Positions 19,942-26,960 of a stretch of DNA of 26,960 nucleotides are shown piece by piece. Below the pieces are notes generated by a model, which worked only from the letters and a program-made list of their open reading frames with translations, ran no database searches and was not told where the DNA came from. A program made the translations under genes and the position numbers. The stretch is from Patescibacteria group bacterium (GTDB lineage Bacteria; Patescibacteriota; Gracilibacteria; UBA1369; PNNO01), in contig JBHPIO010000015.1 in assembly GCA_042568575.1 (NCBI GenBank), positions 1 to 26,960 of the forward strand, given 5' to 3'. How positions within the stretch are numbered: position 1 is the first letter of the stretch; each line of letters begins with the position of its first letter.

Positions 19942-20030
19942 GCGTTCATTTTAGGTGAAAGTGGGCTTCCCGGGAAGTCGAAAAATGGGTACGTCAAATT
20001 TCCTATTCTATAGTCGTTTAGCGCGATTTG

Positions 20031-20095
20031 GTATCCAGTAAGTCGAGGGTACCGGATAAGTACGATGTATCCGGTAAGTGGGAGGTACCGGATAA
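20031..20095. repeat. Two tandem palindromic units (TATCCRGTA-N9-TACCGGATA), 36-bp period
   Basis: Copies at 20031-20059 and 20067-20095, between the divergent aroE and mscS genes. Confidence 0.85.
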
Positions 20096-20101
20096 CCCAG
20101 G

Positions 20102-20130
20102 TTGAAAAAAACCTCATTTTTTGCTATAAT
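20102..20130 (+). promoter_or_regulatory. Sigma70-type promoter of mscS
   Basis: TTGAAA, 17 nt, TATAAT with extended TG. Confidence 0.8.
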
Positions 20131-20152
20131 TAACAGATTAAAAAACAAAAAT

Positions 20153-21262
20153 ATGCTCGATTTCTTACTAAACATACAAACCGCATTTGCTCAGGTCACT
20201 ACAGGATCTGTAACCGGCGAAACAGAAACGCAGCTTTCAGGGCTATTAGAATTTTTCCTCATAAAAATTCCTTCCTTTATTGCAGCAATCATTGTTTTCG
20301 CACTCTTTTACCTGCTTTCAAAGGCCATAAAGGGGATTGTGGAATCAAGACTTTCGCAATCATTGGAAGAAAATAAGGAAGTTCAGATACTTGCAGGACG
20401 AACAGCAGCAACAACAACCGTTATCATCGGTGCGACAGTAGCGTTAAACATCGCGGGAATCGACCTGACAGTGATAATCGCTGCAGCCGGTTTCGGTGTA
20501 GGTTTCGCTTTAAAAGACATCATAATAAACTTTTTTGCTGGAATAATGATCCTTGCGCAGAAGCAGTTCACAATTGGAGACTTTATTAACGTAGAGGGCA
20601 CAATCGGAAAAATCGTAGAGATCCAAACTCGTGCGACTATCCTTCAAGCTCTTGATGGAACAAAAGTAGTCGTGCCAAACTCGGAACTATTCTTAAAACA
20701 AGTTACCAGCTACACAAGCAACGCATTCAGACGAATCGAAGTAGTGGTTGGTGTTGAATACGATACAAACCTCAACCAAGCAGTTGAGACATGTTACGCA
20801 GCAATTAAAGGAACAAATGGCGTTCTAATAGAGCCAAAACCAGCGGTTCTTGTAGATGAATTCTCGGATAGCTCGATCAGTCTAATCGTTCGAGCGTGGG
20901 TAGAATCACGAAGCGGATGGCTTCAAATAAAGAGTGACCTTGCTGTAAGCATCAAAACAGAATTTGATAAAGTTGGTATTGGCATTCCATTCCCAATCCG
21001 TACAATTGTTTATGATAAAGATGCTAAGGCGGAAAAAGCAGCAAAGCCAGCATGGGTTGCGCAGGAACCAAAACTGGAAGCAGTTCCAGTCCCAGCAGAG
21101 CCTCAAGTAGCGCCAGCAGCTCAGGCACCAGTTCAAGGTCAAGCAGTCCCAGTAGCGCCAGCTGCACCGGCAGTTATACCGCAGGCAGTAACAAAACCTT
21201 CAAAAGATCAGCCGGGTTCAGCCTTCCTAATTGGAAATCCAGAAGATAAAAAAGAATCTTAA
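20153..21262 (+). CDS. mscS: Small-conductance mechanosensitive channel family protein with Pro/Ala-rich tail
   Basis: GFGVGFALKDIIINFFAGI, FTIGDFI, VVVPNS, V.Y.T and GIGIPFP motifs. ATG 20153 chosen because the TTG at 20102 is part of the -35 box. Confidence 0.93.
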   Translation: MLDFLLNIQTAFAQVTTGSVTGETETQLSGLLEFFLIKIPSFIAAIIVFALFYLLSKAIKGIVESRLSQSLEENKEVQILAGRTAATTTVIIGATVALNIAGIDLTVIIAAAGFGVGFALKDIIINFFAGIMILAQKQFTIGDFINVEGTIGKIVEIQTRATILQALDGTKVVVPNSELFLKQVTSYTSNAFRRIEVVVGVEYDTNLNQAVETCYAAIKGTNGVLIEPKPAVLVDEFSDSSISLIVRAWVESRSGWLQIKSDLAVSIKTEFDKVGIGIPFPIRTIVYDKDAKAEKAAKPAWVAQEPKLEAVPVPAEPQVAPAAQAPVQGQAVPVAPAAPAVIPQAVTKPSKDQPGSAFLIGNPEDKKES

Positions 21263-21323
21263 CCTTTCGTCCTCTCGTTACTTTCATAAGGACTCATCAG
21301 TACCGTTTTTAACGGTAGAGGTT
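21261..21323 (-). ncRNA. Type III hammerhead ribozyme
   Basis: Minus strand reads AACC-UC^-UACCGUU-aaa-AACGGUA-CUGAUGA-GUCCU-(uau gaaa gua acgag)-AGGAC-GAAA-GGUU. The CUGAUGA/GAAA/UH core is complete, with stem I 7 bp, stem II 5 bp and stem III 5 bp. Predicted cleavage after C at 21318. Confidence 0.9.
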
Positions 21324-21503
21324 GGGGACTAGTGTTCGGAATCGCGGTCTATAAGACCGGCCTACTTGACGAACGTCCCCCTTTTTTTGTTGGCAGTGCT
21401 CCTGTCCCCGAGTAGGCGAAGCATCGTTGCCGGTGATTACCTCACTATTGGTGCCGGCTTCCCGACTCTATGACATAACGCTGTGAGGCATAACTGACGG
21501 TAC

Positions 21504-21533
21504 CTAATTGGGGTGCAAATCATGATAATTCAT
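21504..21533 (-). CDS. Mini-ORF 2, MNYHDLHPN
   Basis: AAAGGAGG 6 nt upstream of ATG; 9 codons then TAG. Translation unproven. Confidence 0.35.
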   Translation of the reverse strand: MNYHDLHPN

Positions 21534-21579
21534 GCTTGCCCTCCTTTCGTAGTGAAAGTCAGTTCCTCATTTGATGCGC

Positions 21580-21609
21580 TCAAACGGGGACAAAAGCGAT
21601 TTTGTTCAT
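21580..21609 (-). CDS. Mini-ORF 1, MNKIAFVPV
   Basis: AGGAGGT 4 nt upstream of ATG; 9 codons then TGA. Translation unproven. Confidence 0.35.
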   Translation of the reverse strand: MNKIAFVPV

Positions 21610-21634
21610 TGGCACCTCCTATATGCACATATTA

Positions 21635-21663
21635 TTTTTAACATAAAATACGAAAGATGTCAA
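21635..21663 (-). promoter_or_regulatory. Putative promoter of the hammerhead-terminated RNA
   Basis: Perfect TTGACA (21663-21658), 17 nt, then TAAAAA with extended TG; the -10 box is imperfect. Confidence 0.55.
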
Positions 21664-21763
21664 TGCTCGTTGGAATTACACTAATTTTATCACATATTAC
21701 AACTTTTTGGTTGATAAAAGTCCATCGTGGTGCTAGTTTGTTGCCCGGTATTTTTAGAGATAT

Positions 21764-21791
21764 AAAGAAAAACCCTCATCTAAGATGAGGG
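21764..21791 (-). terminator. Intrinsic terminator
   Basis: CCCTCATC-tta-GATGAGGG hairpin followed on the minus strand by TTTTTCTTT. Confidence 0.8.
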
Positions 21792-22157
21792 GAAAAAATT
21801 CAATTCTATCAATCGAGTTTATTAGAAAAACGACTGAGAATCATGCGAATTTTGTTTTTGTTTTACGGTGACCAGTCCATATTTTTGTTTTTGCTTTGCT
21901 TTGGCATAGTTTTTAGTCGTGCCACCGACCGTCTGTTTAGTGTGCGATCTCAAGTAACCGAAGCTACAAGGATGCACCAGACAAAAGTGAGCGGTCCAGT
22001 TGGTCAGGAAAGGGCCATCACAGAGCAAAAAATGAAACCAATTGAAAACTTCAATTAGTGCACACTTTCTGCTATGCTTATCGCGGTCTGATTTTCAAAG
22101 GTCTGATACTAGGCTCGACAAGGGCATCATATAATCTGTATCTTTTATCGAGCGTTT
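21768..22157 (-). ncRNA. Putative ~390-nt structured RNA (class not recognised)
   Basis: Bounded by a near-consensus promoter and an intrinsic terminator, with no convincing CDS. Has a cUUCGg tetraloop hairpin (21954-21967), a long G-U-containing hairpin (22024-22073) and a 5' stem (22145-22153/22113-22121). Confidence 0.6.
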
Positions 22158-22163
22158 CATGTC

Positions 22164-22192
22164 AGTATATAAAATTAGCCCACGCGAGTCAA
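22164..22192 (-). promoter_or_regulatory. Sigma70-type promoter pointing into the intergenic region
   Basis: TTGACT (22192-22187), 17 nt, TATACT (22169-22164). Confidence 0.75.
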
Positions 22193-22230
22193 AGTATACG
22201 CCTAGACACATTCTTTAAAACCATTGTACG

Positions 22231-22977
22231 TTGGAAATAAAAGGAGTAAAAACCCGCATAATAAAGGAGAAAGACGACCTTTTCGAAGTCTTAAAAGAAT
22301 CTCTAAAAAAGAGCAAAATTAAGCTCAAAGAGAAGGATGTTTTAGTGATCGCATCAAAGGTTTTAGCCGTTACTCAAGGCAGAGTCGTGCCGGTAAAAGA
22401 CCTCGACTACAAGAAAGGTCATTTAAAAGAGATAATTCAAAAGGAAGGCGGCATGCTATTCGAAACAAACTATTGCTGGTTAACCTTTAAAGATGGACAC
22501 TTAATCCCAAACGCAGGCGTAGACAAGTCAAACGTAGAAGAAGGCAAAGTAATTCTCTGGCCAAAAAACATAATAAAGGAAGCACGAGAAATCCAGGAAA
22601 AATTACGCAAAGAATACAAACTCCGCAACTTAGGCGTAGTAATATCAGACTCAACAACAGCGCCACTACGGTCGGGCGTACATGGAATATCACTCGGATC
22701 ACACGGATTTGAAGCAGTAGAGGACTGCCGCGGAACAAAAGACATCTATGGGAAGAAAATCAACATAACAAGACGAGCAATGGCCGACAGCCTAGCAACA
22801 GCCGCAATAATCGTAATGGGCGAGACAAACAACAAGATGCCATTCGCAATAGTACGCGGCGCACCAGTCAAATTCACAAACAAAAAACTGCGAAGACACT
22901 TTATCCGCTTGAAATCGGACTTATTCTACGGTATGTATAATAATGCCTTTAGAAAATTCCTATCACGCAAAAAATAA
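22231..22977 (+). CDS. Coenzyme F420-0:L-glutamate ligase (CofE) family protein, possibly a folate gamma-glutamyl ligase (FolC2-like)
   Basis: DVLVIASKV, PNAGVDKSN, GVVISDS..PLRSG, G.KDIYG, ADSLATAA and MGE motifs; TTG start. Confidence 0.88.
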   Translation: MEIKGVKTRIIKEKDDLFEVLKESLKKSKIKLKEKDVLVIASKVLAVTQGRVVPVKDLDYKKGHLKEIIQKEGGMLFETNYCWLTFKDGHLIPNAGVDKSNVEEGKVILWPKNIIKEAREIQEKLRKEYKLRNLGVVISDSTTAPLRSGVHGISLGSHGFEAVEDCRGTKDIYGKKINITRRAMADSLATAAIIVMGETNNKMPFAIVRGAPVKFTNKKLRRHFIRLKSDLFYGMYNNAFRKFLSRKK

Positions 22978-22978
22978 T

Positions 22979-23584
22979 ATGTTCAAAATCGCGGTACTCG
23001 CATCAACAAACGGCACAGACCTCCAAGCCATCATCGACGAAATGAAAGCCGGCAAAATGGAAGGGATTGAACTTACTTGTGTTCTTAGCTATAAAGAATG
23101 CAAGGCAATAGAAAGGGCAAAGGAAGCAGGGTATGATGCAAGAGTTCTTGGTTCAAAATTTGATAGCAGAGAGAAGTTTGAGATAGCTGCTAAGAATATT
23201 CTCAAGGAGAAAGGCGTGGATCTAGTCTGTTTGATTGGATATATGAGAATATTAAGTGATTGGTTTATAGACGAATTTGATATGAAAATCATAAATGTCC
23301 ATCCGGCAATAGACATGGAAAAGTACGGAGGAGAAGGTTTTTTTGGGGGAAATGTTCATAAAGCAGTGCTTGAGGCTGGTGAAAAGGAAACTGGATGTAC
23401 AATTCATTATGTGACAAAAGAAGTTGATGCTGGTCCTCCAATTGATAGTGAGGAAGTTGAAATTTTACCAAATGACACAGTAGGTACACTTAAAGATAAA
23501 GTGCAGGCATGCGAAAAGAGACTATATCCAGAAGTGATTAGAAAAATAGCAAAAGGAGAATATGTTATGAAGTTACGTTTATGA
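22979..23584 (+). CDS. purN: Phosphoribosylglycinamide formyltransferase
   Basis: IAVLAS.NGTDLQAII, GYMRIL, INVHP and GCTIHYV...VDAGP motifs; ATG 22979 just after the previous stop. Confidence 0.95.
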   Translation: MFKIAVLASTNGTDLQAIIDEMKAGKMEGIELTCVLSYKECKAIERAKEAGYDARVLGSKFDSREKFEIAAKNILKEKGVDLVCLIGYMRILSDWFIDEFDMKIINVHPAIDMEKYGGEGFFGGNVHKAVLEAGEKETGCTIHYVTKEVDAGPPIDSEEVEILPNDTVGTLKDKVQACEKRLYPEVIRKIAKGEYVMKLRL

Positions 23585-24923: not shown

Positions 24924-26102
24924 TTAAGTTACGATATCAGAGAGGCGATCTGATTCTACCGCATCTTTGATTTCCATTGCAATTCTTTCGCCGTAACTTA
25001 CGCTTTTGCCATACAAATATCCTGAGTAAGGTGTGAATGGTGTCCCAGGCGATCCCGGAATTCGCATACTTACGTCAAATATCACGATTTCTTCTTTTCC
25101 ATGATCTGCTGAGATAGCTCCTTGTAATGCAAAAGGTCCAACCATTCCAGGCGCGACTTCTTTGTCCATTGTTGCAACGAACTTTTCACCGGCTTCAAAT
25201 GCCTTTTCTACGATAGATTCCTTCACAGTGCACGAGATATGTCCTGTCTCGATCATTTTTGGCTTATATCCGCTTTCTATTAGTTTTGTCTGGACAACTG
25301 CGTCGAGTCTTAAAAATCCGTCTAGTGACGTCTGTCTTCGTGTGTCAGTTCCTAGCAATTCGAGTTCTTTGGTGAGTGGCGAATAAAAATAGTTGAAATT
25401 TACTTGTGCTCCAATAATAAATTCTTCAATTACCGCGTTGTCGAGGTCTTCTTTTGTGATTAGACCTTTTTCGATCATATCCGAGCTAATTTCTTTAAAC
25501 TCTGTTGTTTTAGTTATTGTGAAGAAAGCTCTTTCGTAACCACGAATTGCCTCATTTACTTTGATTAATAGTGGTCCGCCATTGTTATCAAAATGTTTGT
25601 CCATTGCTTTTTGAGCCTCTTCGTCATTCATTCCGCTATCTCCCGGACGAATGATTCCCGGAATTCTAATCCCAGCCTTAACCAATAATTCATATTGATT
25701 GTTTGGCTGATCACGTTCTTCAAGTCTAACTAGCACTCTGTTTCCATAAATCGGAACGTTGAATTGCTTTTCAATAAGGTCAAAGTCCTTGAAGTACACC
25801 CAAAAGTATCTGTTGTGAATGAAGACGGTGTTTCTTTTGCGAAGTTCTTCTTGAATGTCTTCGTTTACGATGTCCGCGAACTTATCTACAACAATCACAT
25901 CATCGATGCAGCCTTTGCCATCGCGGCTTTTGTAATATTTGGCATATGTCTGTTCGCGGCCTTTTTGGCAAACCGCAAGGGTTTTAAATCCGAGCTTTTT
26001 AGCTCCAGCGCAAACGTCCAAAGCGCTGTGTCCACCAAGCACACCGATTGTAATTTGTGAGGTGTCGTAGCCCTTAAGTACGTCTAAAATTTGATCTTTC
26101 AT
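24924..26102 (-). CDS. PurP-family ATP-grasp protein (PurP-like paralog, DUF1246/DUF1297)
   Basis: GGHSALDV, GYERAFF, IEEFIIG, DTRRQTSLDG, GHISCTVKES, GPFALQ and FDVSMRIPGSP motifs. Confidence 0.88.
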   Translation of the reverse strand: MKDQILDVLKGYDTSQITIGVLGGHSALDVCAGAKKLGFKTLAVCQKGREQTYAKYYKSRDGKGCIDDVIVVDKFADIVNEDIQEELRKRNTVFIHNRYFWVYFKDFDLIEKQFNVPIYGNRVLVRLEERDQPNNQYELLVKAGIRIPGIIRPGDSGMNDEEAQKAMDKHFDNNGGPLLIKVNEAIRGYERAFFTITKTTEFKEISSDMIEKGLITKEDLDNAVIEEFIIGAQVNFNYFYSPLTKELELLGTDTRRQTSLDGFLRLDAVVQTKLIESGYKPKMIETGHISCTVKESIVEKAFEAGEKFVATMDKEVAPGMVGPFALQGAISADHGKEEIVIFDVSMRIPGSPGTPFTPYSGYLYGKSVSYGERIAMEIKDAVESDRLSDIVT

Positions 26103-26146
26103 ATAATCAATTATTAATTCTTGCCGGCATTATAACACTGCAATTG

Positions 26147-26960
26147 CTATCCTAAAACTTTTTCTAGCTGATCACTCTCAATTGCCTGTTTAATATCGCG
26201 GCAAAGTCTTCGACCTGTGCTCATCGGTTCGTCGTATCGAAGCCATGTATAAGGAGATCCGTGAACAAACGGGTTTGTTCCGGCTACTATCCTCGCGCTG
26301 ATTTCGAAAACATAAAAGTTTAAGTTTGGATCGATGATTGCTTCCAGGCAGAAAGGACCGTATAAACCTTTCCCAACAAGTTTCTTTGATTTTTCTACAA
26401 CGTTTTCTCCCATTTCAAATACCTGTGGAAGGATTGACTCCCTTATTACCATCGGAATGTTTCCTGTGATTGTGTAGCTTGTTCTAATGTCCGCATCTAA
26501 CTGATCCTGCGCGGCGATTCGTCCAATTGAATCTGCATTTGATTCGTAACGTTTATCAAAACTCATTATCTCGAGTTCTTCTGTTAACGGAGAATAAAAA
26601 TAGTGCGTATACATTGGAACTCCAACGATATATTCCTGAAGTACATATTTCTCGTCACCTGGATAATCTTTTATTCCTCTGTAAAAGTCTTCTGTTGAAT
26701 TTGCGATGAAGTAACCTTTTCCGCCCTGTGCTCCGTGAAACTTTACGATCACTGGACAATCAATATCTTCCGGTGTTGCAAAAATACGAGGCAATTTGCA
26801 TCCCGCATCAAGTAACCATTCTCTTTCTTTACCTCGATCAGATTCGAATTCCAGAATACCTTTCGTTCCATAATGCATGATTTCAAGCTCTTTCATTCTT
26901 TCTGGGCCGATATATGTTACAAAAGATCCATGTGGAATGAGGATTGTATTTTCTTTCATC
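26147..26960 (-). CDS. purP: Formate-dependent FAICAR synthetase PurP (5' end probably beyond the window)
   Basis: IPHGSF, KFHGAQGGKGYF, DKRYESNAD, GNIPMVIRES, GPFCLE and FEISARIVAGTN match archaeal PurP. The N-terminal SHSAL region is missing, so the gene likely starts outside the window. Confidence 0.9.
   Translation of the reverse strand, partial: MKENTILIPHGSFVTYIGPERMKELEIMHYGTKGILEFESDRGKEREWLLDAGCKLPRIFATPEDIDCPVIVKFHGAQGGKGYFIANSTEDFYRGIKDYPGDEKYVLQEYIVGVPMYTHYFYSPLTEELEIMSFDKRYESNADSIGRIAAQDQLDADIRTSYTITGNIPMVIRESILPQVFEMGENVVEKSKKLVGKGLYGPFCLEAIIDPNLNFYVFEISARIVAGTNPFVHGSPYTWLRYDEPMSTGRRLCRDIKQAIESDQLEKVLG

Follow-up and report, generated by a model that had tools for sequence, protein, structure and literature searches.

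The window analysed here is a stretch of 26,960 nucleotides from a Patescibacteria group bacterium. On its plus strand, mscS ends with the stop codon TAA (21260-21262). Behind this gene, reading on the minus strand, we found a putative promoter, two SD-led mini-ORFs, a structured RNA body and, at the 3' end, a candidate hammerhead ribozyme (Table 1). An initial annotation of the locus had listed a TTGACA promoter, two SD-led 9-codon ORFs, several stems and a hammerhead, and all of these are present where it had placed them. It is also right in that mscS converges and no same-strand gene lies downstream. The layout it proposed, a hammerhead at the 3' end of a structured, noncoding stretch with a promoter, is supported by the predictions described below.

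Table 1. Features at the locus (positions in the window; strand. where none is assigned)
Feature	Position	Strand	Basis or details
mscS, convergent	20102..21262	+	Pfam MS_channel_2nd, MS_channel_3rd; junction comparison
Segment without counterpart in G001	21220..21761	.	blastn and junction print-out
Type III hammerhead (candidate)	21261..21323	-	RF00008 alignment, junction parse, minimum-energy fold
Hammerhead stem III	21323-21319 with 21265-21261	-
Predicted cleavage site	after C21318	-
Hammerhead stem I	21317-21301	-
CUGAUGA	21300-21294	-
Hammerhead stem II	21293-21269	-
GAAA	21268-21265	-
57-nt terminal hairpin, GGGGAC...GUCCCC	21324..21380	-	minimum-energy fold, pair probabilities; z -3.55
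A7 linker (U7 on plus strand)	21382..21388	-	sequence
Structured core (predicted)	21398..21597	-	13-bp closing helix; z -4.94; pair probabilities 0.9-0.99
SD2 and 9-codon mini-ORF2	21504..21544	-	SD2 GGAGGG 21544-21539; ORF 21533-21504, UAG stop
SD1 and 9-codon mini-ORF1	21580..21620	-	SD1 AGGAGG 21620-21615; ORF 21609-21580, UGA stop
Sigma-70-type promoter (predicted)	21635..21663	-	TTGACA, 17-nt spacer, TG-n-TAAAAA; promoter scan 10/12 matches
Hairpin terminator, common to G001, outside insert	21773..21791	.	terminator scan and junction comparison

The insert downstream of mscS

Employing blastn of positions 20000-23000 against L015 and a comparison of the junctions, we found that the same-genus genome G001 has only 20 nt in place of the 542 nt of 21220..21761. 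The final ~8 codons of mscS and its stop codon fall within this segment; by eye, a weak likeness of the mscS tail extends to about 21238, which places the insert proper at ~21239-21761 (~520 bases). In G001, a terminator matching 21773..21791 lies directly behind mscS. Because G001 has just 20 nt at the same site, 21220-21761 is, on this comparison, a strain-specific accessory insert that separates the mscS stop codon from the shared terminator, and not a conserved gene. The element had no match in 12 same-family genomes. The GC content of the unit is 0.50-0.53, versus 0.32-0.37 in adjoining noncoding DNA; this contrast and the absence from the site in a same-genus genome indicate an accessory, horizontally acquired setting, as judged in the manner of Perreault 2011. 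The neighbours of the insert are housekeeping genes, and phage genes are absent nearby. A search with 7-nt seeds found no terminal direct or inverted repeats of the insert. An imperfect A-rich repeat is visible by eye at both junctions, and no reliance is placed on it.

We compared the locus with two DNA metagenome runs. A ~94%-identical strain, whose contigs do not cover 21552-21748, carries the insert at the same site. One contig spans 21160-21400 with 13 substitutions and 2 gaps, so the element stands behind mscS in this strain too. Of the 9 substitutions listed for this contig, 7 affect the mscS tail and 2 the hammerhead and hairpin; these 2 and the two indels lie in loops or in the A-run, or keep the pairing. 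The A7 linker is one A longer in the metagenome strain, and four single-base indels were counted over the ~360 nt covered by contigs. The body differs by ~6.6% (6 substitutions and 2 gaps in 122 nt), and one of the indels hits a stretch predicted to pair. Since the fast-evolving mscS tail diverges to a matching degree, the body shows no evident constraint. A second metagenome contig has an identical right flank and ~12 more bases of the insert, followed by unrelated sequence.

The candidate hammerhead ribozyme and the predicted promoter

In a permissive scan of 701 nt, the Rfam model RF00008 matched 21325-21259 with 36.5 bits (E 3.6e-6); over the whole 1.2-Mb genome, this was the sole match (E 1.5e-6). 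The score is below the Rfam gathering score of 48.5 because loop I and stem II exceed the lengths in the model, and for this reason a default Rfam scan of the window is empty. In the alignment with RF00008, the catalytic core CUGAUGA ... GAAA is intact, position 17 is C, the A15.1-U16.1 pair is present with UC at 21319-21318, and the core-adjacent pairs of stems I and II (1.1-2.1 and 10.1-11.1) are standard, U-A and G-C. The minimum-energy fold of 21392-21255 gave a three-way junction with stems I and II loop-capped and stem III open, and both this junction and the 57-nt hairpin stacked on it appear in the plain minimum-energy fold. In all these features the ribozyme agrees with type III of RF00008, from which it differs by the longer loop I and stem II and by the lower score. 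Criteria given in the consulted part of PMC3088659 for accepting a hammerhead are an intact core, A, C or U at nucleotide 17, the A15.1-U16.1 pair and standard core-adjacent pairs. The hammerhead is thus a sound candidate of a known class with predicted self-cleavage, complete as the initial annotation had claimed, though under the gathering score. Its stem III overlaps the TAA of mscS by 2 nt.

The -35 element of the promoter, TTGACA, is at 21663-21658. The promoter scan paired it with AAAAAT after an 18-nt spacer (10/12 matches); by eye, there is an alternative with a 17-nt spacer, TAAAAA (21640-21635), preceded by TG. On its own the promoter is weak evidence, because 1.3 kb of scanned sequence yielded 5 promoter-like sites where 2.5 were expected. 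The commonness of such sites, the hammerhead score under the Rfam cut-off and a fold stability that is nearly strand-symmetric (z -4.94 and -4.21, see below) would all suit a silent relic, in which the promoter is a chance match, the hammerhead an inactive leftover and no minus-strand product is made. We regard this as very unlikely: neither the catalytic core nor any core-adjacent pair is disrupted, the hammerhead of the metagenome strain has a single substitution, in a loop, as against 7 listed sites over the adjoining 103 nt, and the perfect -35 element with optimal spacing is also seen in other hammerhead cassettes (L013, L037 and L051).

Predicted fold and coding potential of the RNA body

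The core (21397-21597) had a z-score of -4.94 on the minus strand, with 0 of 200 shuffles equally stable, and -4.21 on the plus strand. For comparison, three cargo ORFs gave -2.0 to -2.7 and two host coding pieces -1.3 and +1.9. In the predicted fold, the core is closed by a 13-bp long-range helix (21597-21585 with 21410-21398, probability 0.99) that was absent from the initial annotation; it contains the helix UGAGG-AACUGAC/GUCAGUU-CCUC and a hairpin sequestering SD2 and AUG2, which are paired with probabilities of 0.96-0.99. Among the stems proposed earlier, UGAGG-AACUGAC/GUCAGUU-CCUC and GGGGAC/GUCCCC were recovered in the minimum-energy fold with probabilities of 0.9-0.99, whereas GCCGG/CCGGC and GAAGC/GCUUC belong to a sub-domain (21466-21429) with an ambiguous fold (0.37-0.44). 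The 57-nt terminal hairpin adjoins stem III of the hammerhead without a spacer. Read on the plus strand, 21324-21388 is a hairpin followed by U7, terminator-like and ~60 nt past the mscS stop codon, with a stability that is not unusual (z -1.5 for the hairpin region). On the minus strand, no sense terminator was found 3' of the hammerhead, just a weak 5-bp site.

SD1 and SD2 are five and six nt upstream of mini-ORF1 and mini-ORF2, respectively. Each ORF has 9 codons and a stop, and the two peptides share an initial MN and a Pro at position 8. The 1.2-Mb genome contains GGAGG-N4-9-ATG 189 times, both strands counted, and the Poisson P of two occurrences within 320 nt is ~3e-4; the mini-ORF pair is one of just 2 such close short SD-ORF pairs genome-wide. 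The 3' half of mini-ORF1 is the 5' strand of the predicted core-closing helix.

The leaders of erm and cat are leader-peptide translational attenuators. As in these leaders, a short SD-led ORF overlaps a helix strand here and a hairpin of the predicted fold sequesters the SD and AUG of a second ORF; the difference is that a regulated downstream gene is absent. By this analogy, translation of mini-ORF1 could melt the closing helix, re-pair GGGGAC and GUCCCC and expose SD2 and AUG2, with mini-ORF2 or antisense read-through into mscS as the output. Both motifs are present in two copies in the body, so alternative pairings are possible. The resemblance between the two peptides would fit such a switch, as would the SD-led 9-codon ORF ending in UGA in a distant unit (L037, see below) and the fact that mini-ORF2 is still open in the metagenome strain, where it has one missense change and the spacing from SD2 to AUG2 is longer by a base. 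However, the minus strand offers no downstream gene to regulate, nine-codon ORFs easily arise by chance and the parallel with erm and cat is an analogy; we consider the switch distinctly improbable.

No same-strand ORF of at least 40 aa was found within 300 nt upstream of the hammerhead. GC by codon phase is flat in the body (0.51/0.47/0.47), and codon periodicity is absent. With recoded stops, as in recoded mobile elements, the body could encode a 54-aa protein if TGA were sense (frame 2 from AUG1 has TGA stops only over 54 codons) or a 74-aa protein if TAG were sense (frame 3 from AUG2 has just two TAG stops over 74 codons, extending into hammerhead stem I). The host uses both codons as stops, since among the 23 long ORFs of the window TGA ends 3 and TAG ends 4. 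Moreover, the TGA=W readthrough product had no homologue, the TAG=Q product had 0 matches among 1.84 billion representatives, and the lack of periodicity and the single-base indels relative to the metagenome strain also speak against coding. By our arithmetic, ~15% of random 60-codon frames are free of TAA and TAG by chance. Recoded-stop coding is close to refuted, and we give it hardly any credence.

In Rfam 15, the 311-nt body had 0 matches at the gathering score in the default scan of the window; a permissive scan (E up to 10) returned the hammerhead and chance-level matches around the 21773-21791 terminator, and nothing else. This agrees with the earlier view that the body stands outside known RNA classes. 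Owing to the GGGG...CCCC-closed 3' domain, tmRNA, RNase P RNA and tRNA-like identities were considered and rejected: ARAGORN found no tRNA or tmRNA in the window and the tmRNA of the genome is on contig C26, while the housekeeping RNase P RNA is encoded on contig C23 and its model had no match at the locus. As a side observation, RtcB had no match in the genome, which is 82% complete; the incompleteness leaves no inference.

Blastn showed the body to be single-copy in its own genome, and it had no match among the genomes of 60 relatives or in 200 further genomes of the class, where only the hammerhead of L014 was matched. Compared with 22 hammerhead loci, it had nothing in common beyond the hammerhead module. 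The whole insert had no match in phage records, and the pattern of the stem-I subtype hammerhead occurred 0 times in viral contigs. Pattern scans for the hammerhead junction found 11 loci in genome contigs and 3 in metagenome contigs, with the same ribozyme subtype and unrelated cargo. In these searches, the body is without an RNA or DNA homologue beyond the ~94%-identical strain and may be a one-off. A check by homologues and covariation had been proposed earlier; with that strain as the sole homologue, it yielded no covariation.

Related units and interpretation

Similar hammerheads are sporadic in the phylum (18/401 genomes). An order-level search of 151 genomes gave 0 matches above the Rfam cut-off and 4 genomes with matches at E <= 0.01; three other hammerheads of this order scored 36.7-46.9 bits, also under 48.5. 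Because of such scores, standard annotation misses the hammerheads of this group. One locus (L049) has three of them in 4.7 kb. The cleavage dinucleotide is UC in 31/32 units, stem III has at least 3 further pairs in 28/32, and a hairpin ends at most 3 nt from stem III in 23/31. An A-run before this hairpin, the would-be reverse terminator, is present in only 4/31 units and is therefore not general.

An ORF of at least 40 aa lies just 5' of the hammerhead in 30 of 32 parsed units; this locus is without one. Seven of eight cargo ORFs checked had no Pfam family, and five cargo ORFs of other cassettes had a GC3 of 0.65-0.92. Blastn linked our locus to others via the hairpin end and the hammerhead only (L014, 84% over 57 nt; L059, 85% over 72 nt). 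Because the same hairpin and hammerhead module follows ORFs in nearly all units, the unit looks, by its sequence, like a cargo-poor, noncoding variant of hammerhead-flanked accessory cassettes. An ORF-poor layout like this one is also found in L037, in a distant family: a TTGACA promoter, an SD with a 9-codon mini-ORF ending in UGA, a hairpin-rich body (z -6.7), an A7 run, a G-rich hairpin and the hammerhead, then TTCTTTTTTAT. The body of L037 had no match in 60 relatives of its genome.

The prevalence of ORFs in related units could also mean that our unit is a decayed cassette that has lost its small ORF and kept the promoter, leader, 3' UTR hairpins and hammerhead, with a functionless body perhaps still transcribed and cut. 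Other cassettes have hairpin-rich 3' UTRs of 170-280 nt before the hammerhead, and in L051 the leader (~160 nt) and 3' UTR (~90 nt) together are about as long as this unit. Two strong SD-AUG sites with just 9 codons resemble stranded starts, flat codon-phase GC also suits UTR-derived sequence, and the body is a singleton that has diverged, with indels, from the metagenome strain. On the other hand, the 13-bp closing helix and the stability of the core exceed those of the cargo ORFs tested, the body lacks similarity to leaders or UTRs of other cassettes, the unit is retained with an intact hammerhead in two strains ~6% apart, and L037 shares the ORF-poor layout. We consider decay possible, if rather doubtful.

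With moderate confidence, we favour the reading of 21239-21761 as a horizontally acquired, self-contained minus-strand transcription unit, a noncoding hammerhead-tailed accessory cassette. Directly visible in the DNA are the listed elements, the status of the unit as an insert, the module common to other cassettes and the absence of a coding signal.

From these we infer transcription, cleavage, end chemistry, a terminator role and any function of the body. The cassette would have entered downstream of the mscS stop codon, ahead of the terminator used by mscS in the sister species. From the sigma-70 promoter, the RNA would start near 21628; its first ~311 nt would form a 5' mini-hairpin displaying SD1, the 200-nt core closed by the 13-bp helix, the A7 linker and the 57-nt hairpin, directly followed by the hammerhead with stem III stacked on the hairpin. 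Hammerhead cleavage leaves a 2',3'-cyclic-phosphate end. By cutting itself after C21318, the RNA would be released with such an end, protected by the hairpin, and would also be severed from polymerase read-through antisense into mscS, so that the ribozyme, and not a sense terminator, would form the 3' end. The hairpin and U7, read on the plus strand, probably give mscS a new terminator. The unit would then be a noncoding member of the scattered hammerhead-tailed cassettes in the phylum, which normally have a small ORF.

Engineered sRNA and guide-RNA cassettes place a self-cleaving ribozyme directly 3' for an exact end. The arrangement here is the same, in a natural chromosomal unit of an uncultivated small-genome bacterium. 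In the parts consulted of two reports, bacterial genomes and prophages are described as having hammerheads next to single genes or to small ORFs that are not conserved (Perreault et al. 2011, PMC3088659; de la Pena 2017, PMC6155905), and the initial annotation's term 'undescribed system' was accordingly overstated. Like the Perreault 2011-type cassettes, our locus is a small accessory unit, foreign in composition, that has a genomic hammerhead at its edge. In those cassettes the hammerhead borders a protein gene and there is an association with prophages, whereas here a single hammerhead is combined with its own promoter and no ORF of at least 40 aa, phage genes are not nearby and phage and viral collections gave no match. 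RAGATH RNAs, in the portion consulted of PMC11061315, are structured RNAs found close to genes that are themselves associated with twister and hammerhead ribozymes. The body is likewise a structured noncoding RNA, by prediction, in the neighbourhood of a hammerhead, but the only match, RAGATH-11 on the opposite strand (15.2 bits versus a cut-off of 79.4, E 4.6), is no real match.

A literature search, covering sources in part, found no natural hammerhead-ended bacterial sRNA. It also found no report on hammerhead ribozymes in Patescibacteria or the candidate phyla radiation, though published supplementary lists (e.g. that of PMC3088659) may include such loci. What is known, then, is the hammerhead class and the hammerhead-flanked cassettes; what is new, as far as sequence can tell, is a noncoding variant with a body matching nothing known. 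If the body is a mere leftover leader, the locus would be an ordinary accessory remnant.

A wider reading is speculative and, in our view, unlikely. The small-genome bacteria of this phylum may exchange autonomous cassettes at terminator-proximal hot spots, of which the second metagenome contig, with the same right flank and ~12 shared bases before unrelated sequence, gives a hint. The hairpin-on-hammerhead 3' module, conserved among the cassettes, would provide a cyclic-phosphate end resistant to exonucleases and insulate the cassette from convergent host transcription. Our locus and L037, as the first noncoding cassettes of this sort, would produce ~300-400-nt RNAs that are reshaped by a translated 9-codon sensor ORF and act on the host gene behind which the cassette is inserted (here mscS).

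According to the part consulted of PMC6155905, it is still an open question what biological roles hammerheads have in bacteria. The locus appears to be a natural case in which a stand-alone noncoding RNA, driven by its own promoter and without a sense terminator, has its 3' end formed by a hammerhead that is stacked on a protective hairpin, and it is a clean system in which to ask whether self-cleavage is an end-forming and insulating device in bacteria.

Layout and strain distribution of the minus-strand unit

In the window, a 560-nt gap separates mscS from a hairpin terminator and is occupied by a unit on the minus strand (see the table of features). As the initial annotation had it, this unit carries a TTGACA promoter and two 9-codon ORFs, each led by a Shine-Dalgarno (SD) sequence. 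The promoter scan paired TTGACA with the -10 hexamer AAAAAT (18-nt spacer, 10/12 matches); an alternative -10, TAAAAA with TG in front, was found by eye after a 17-nt spacer. Downstream of the mini-ORFs lies a GC-rich body; after it come an A7 run, then a long hairpin and, last, the hammerhead. Because only 62 GGAGG-N4-9-ATG sites precede ORFs of at least 50 codons in the 1.2-Mb genome of this organism, strong SD sites are rare in it, and the two in the insert are therefore conspicuous. Strong SDs are carried by other cassettes too.

Features of the minus-strand unit, its surroundings and GC3-rich cargo genes at related loci
Feature	Position	Strand	Remark
mscS	20102-21262	+	Pfam MS_channel domains
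Hairpin terminator	21791-21773		bounds the gap opposite mscS; promoter/terminator scan
-35 hexamer TTGACA	21663-21658	-	sequence
Mini-ORF1, 9 codons	21609-21580	-	AGGAGG five nt upstream
Mini-ORF2, 9 codons	21533-21504	-	GGAGGG six nt upstream
F420-ligase-like gene	22231-22977		
GC3-rich gene 5' of hammerhead	L013:1137-1439		
GC3-rich gene 5' of hammerhead	L014:1094-1435		
GC3-rich gene 5' of hammerhead	L051:3372-3593		
GC3-rich gene 5' of hammerhead	L052:2562-4373		
GC3-rich gene 5' of hammerhead	L047:3700-4122		

mscS adjoins the F420-ligase-like gene in 5/5 family genomes tested. Window regions 20097-21219 and 21762-23000 aligned to a same-genus genome at 78% and 90%, respectively, with 542 nt between these flanks in the window versus 20 nt in the relative. 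Since weak similarity of the mscS tail persists to about 21238 (by eye), the insert spans about 21239-21761. From it mscS takes its final codons and stop, and a terminator common to both genomes lies just outside the other end of the insert. No terminal repeats of the insert were detected, and neither the element nor any hammerhead is present in the 12 family genomes searched.

The sequencing runs found to share this region included no RNA run; two metagenome DNA runs, X1 and X2, with a small share of its sequence words, yielded contigs matching parts of the window. One X2 contig covers 21160-21400 with 13 substitutions and 2 gaps, and a second covers 21430-21551 with 6 substitutions and 2 gaps. 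Because X2 sequence joins mscS to the element, a strain of ~94% identity also has the element behind mscS. An X1 contig has the same sequence as the window over 21749-21850 and is unrelated leftward of 21749; the site behind mscS therefore varies between strains and, judging from these sequences, may hold different inserts in different strains. The X1 contig includes ~12 nt of the insert's end (21749-21761) that are missing from the same-genus genome.

Elsewhere in the window, region 21822-22240, 90% identical to the same-genus genome, contains overlapping small ORFs on both strands (71 and 60 aa, plus; 68 aa, minus) with no Pfam match. In region 24924-26959, two neighbouring genes on the minus strand (392 aa, and 270 aa up to the window end) resemble paralogues of each other by eye, and a PurN-like gene adjoins them.

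The hammerhead and the fold of the RNA body

A default Rfam scan of the window returned zero matches. A permissive scan of 21150-21850 placed Hammerhead_3 (RF00008) at 21325-21259 with 36.5 bits (E 3.6e-6), under the gathering score of 48.5 bits, and gave no other credible match. This was the sole hammerhead match in the whole 1.2-Mb genome (E 1.5e-6). The low score is due to loop I and stem II being longer than in the model; three other hammerheads in the order (151 genomes) scored 36.7-46.9 bits, likewise under the cut-off. The catalytic core CUGAUGA...GAAA is unbroken, the cleavage dinucleotide is UC (predicted cut after C21318), the core-adjacent pairs are U-A and G-C, and stems I and II are loop-capped with stem III open, in agreement with the acceptance criteria in PMC3088659 (core, cleavage nucleotide, core-adjacent pairs and stem closure). 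A plain energy fold of 21392-21255 recovered the three-way junction unaided, with the end of a 57-nt hairpin exactly at the start of stem III. The complete 3' hammerhead of the initial annotation is thus borne out. As for its proposed covariance scan, the body was left without a credible family match and the ribozyme itself fell into a known class.

The minimum-energy fold of 21630-21319 was -101.9 kcal/mol (z -3.08; plus strand, z -3.15). Within it, a 13-bp helix (21597-21585 with 21410-21398) closes a 201-nt core of z -4.94, with 0/200 shuffles equally stable (plus strand, z -4.21). For comparison, z was -2.0 to -2.7 in three cargo ORFs from related cassettes, and -1.3 and +1.9 in two host coding pieces (own script, 30 shuffles each). 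Pair probabilities were 0.9-0.99 for the closing helix, the GAGG-AACUGAC/GUCAGUU-CCUC helix, the hairpin burying SD2/AUG2 and the terminal hairpin. Of the stems proposed initially, the AACUGAC/GUCAGUU helix of the core and the GGGGAC/GUCCCC-closed 3' domain are therefore upheld in the predicted fold, and sub-domain 21466-21429, with the GCCGG/CCGGC and GAAGC/GCUUC pairs, is ambiguous.

Of nine listed substitutions in the first X2 contig, seven lie in the mscS tail and two in the hammerhead plus hairpin; the latter two and two indels fall in the stem I loop, the inner-hairpin loop or its edge, and the A-run. Differences in the X2 body include an A-to-G change that leaves a predicted U-A pair as U-G and a substitution at an unpaired position that is missense for mini-ORF2. 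A deletion there falls in a junction, and an insertion falls in a paired segment that lies between SD2 and AUG2. These differences are compatible with the predicted fold but do not amount to covariation.

Stops are present in all three frames of the body, and its GC content by codon phase is flat (0.51/0.47/0.47). A word-indexed search with the 54-aa product of reading TGA as sense found no homologue, and the 74-aa product of reading TAG as sense had no match among 1.84 billion representatives; long ORFs in the window end in TAA (16), TAG (4) or TGA (3). RNase P RNA and tmRNA were rejected as identities because both genes sit on other contigs; ARAGORN detected nothing in the window.

Related hammerheads and their cargo

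A core pattern matched 20 sites in 18/401 sampled genomes of the phylum, with no matches in the reversed control. A stem-I subtype pattern gave 11 loci in species-representative genomes (7 named as candidate-phyla lineages, 3 duplicating earlier loci), and a junction pattern gave 3 metagenome loci; no hammerhead loci were found in a viral contig scan. We parsed 32 units from 31 distinct loci, leaving out L054 (no 3' core half) and L029 (no perfect stem I). The hammerhead core itself was a precondition of the patterns. UC stands at the cut in 31/32 units, stem I has 5-7 pairs, and stem III has at least 3 further pairs in 28/32. In 23/31 units, the end of a hairpin is no more than 3 nt from stem III, and in 13/32 a terminator-like site lies within 130 nt downstream. 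A same-strand ORF of at least 40 aa ends within 300 nt upstream in 30/32 units; only the window locus and a second one, located at the end of a contig, lack it.

When eight such cargo ORFs were searched against Pfam, one matched Cas_csx3 (23.5 bits, cut-off 21) and seven had no family. The Cas_csx3-domain protein stands alone. The GC3 of five cargo ORFs lies at 0.65-0.92, and these genes look like foreign single-gene cassettes. Their flanks are AT-rich, and most bring a promoter of their own together with a long 5' hairpin and a strong SD. TTGACA promoters lie 476-555 nt upstream of the ribozyme in L013, L037 and L051. The window element resembles other loci in sequence only at the end of the hairpin and in the hammerhead.

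The locus most like the window element is L037, which belongs to another family of the same phylum. It has a TTGACA promoter, an SD and a 9-codon GUG ORF with a UGA stop, then a hairpin-rich body of ~390 nt (z -6.7), and, as in the window, an A7 run, a G-rich hairpin, the hammerhead and TTCTTTTTTAT. MAFFT alignment of the two bodies was not convincing, and the L037 body had no match in 60 relatives of its genome; the bodies are alike in layout only.

L030-L035, six hammerheads of one family of the phylum (f40), form a separate subgroup. They have no upstream hairpin; a conserved unpaired motif, ATCAC-ACAC-CTA, precedes the stem III strand, and at least two of the six are arranged tail-to-tail with a glycosyltransferase-like gene. 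At L049, labelled uncultured gammaproteobacterium, three hammerheads flanking short ORFs lie in 4.7 kb of one contig (668-802, 1515-1655 and 3268-3402), each with a ~100-nt stem II insertion alike among all three.

Nature of the unit

The best-supported account is that of an acquired, autonomous minus-strand unit specifying a ~311-nt noncoding RNA, whose 3' end would be made by hammerhead self-cleavage just past a protective hairpin. Hammerhead cleavage leaves a 2',3'-cyclic phosphate and a 5'-OH, and by this established chemistry the same ends are predicted here. The stand-alone, self-processed RNA of the initial annotation is retained to that extent; within this account, the body may be a working RNA or, with roughly even weight, the leader and trailer of a cassette from which the gene has been lost.

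In plus-strand orientation, region 21324-21388 reads as the terminal hairpin of the RNA and then U7, a terminator-like site ~60 nt past the stop of mscS that may terminate this gene; the fold in that orientation is not exceptional (z -1.5). Being long and branched, the hairpin was missed by the terminator scan. The A-run and hairpin also occur in L037 and L042, and only 4/31 units have them.

In the literature searched, we found no published link between hammerheads and this phylum and, among the matches listed, no natural hammerhead-ended bacterial sRNA. PMC3088659 and PMC6155905 describe hammerheads adjoining small non-conserved accessory ORFs, so the initial suggestion of an undescribed system goes too far; unexplained structured RNAs in hammerhead neighbourhoods appear in PMC11061315. 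Given these prior descriptions, the ribozyme adds a new member to an established class, and the unit represents a noncoding version of an arrangement already described.
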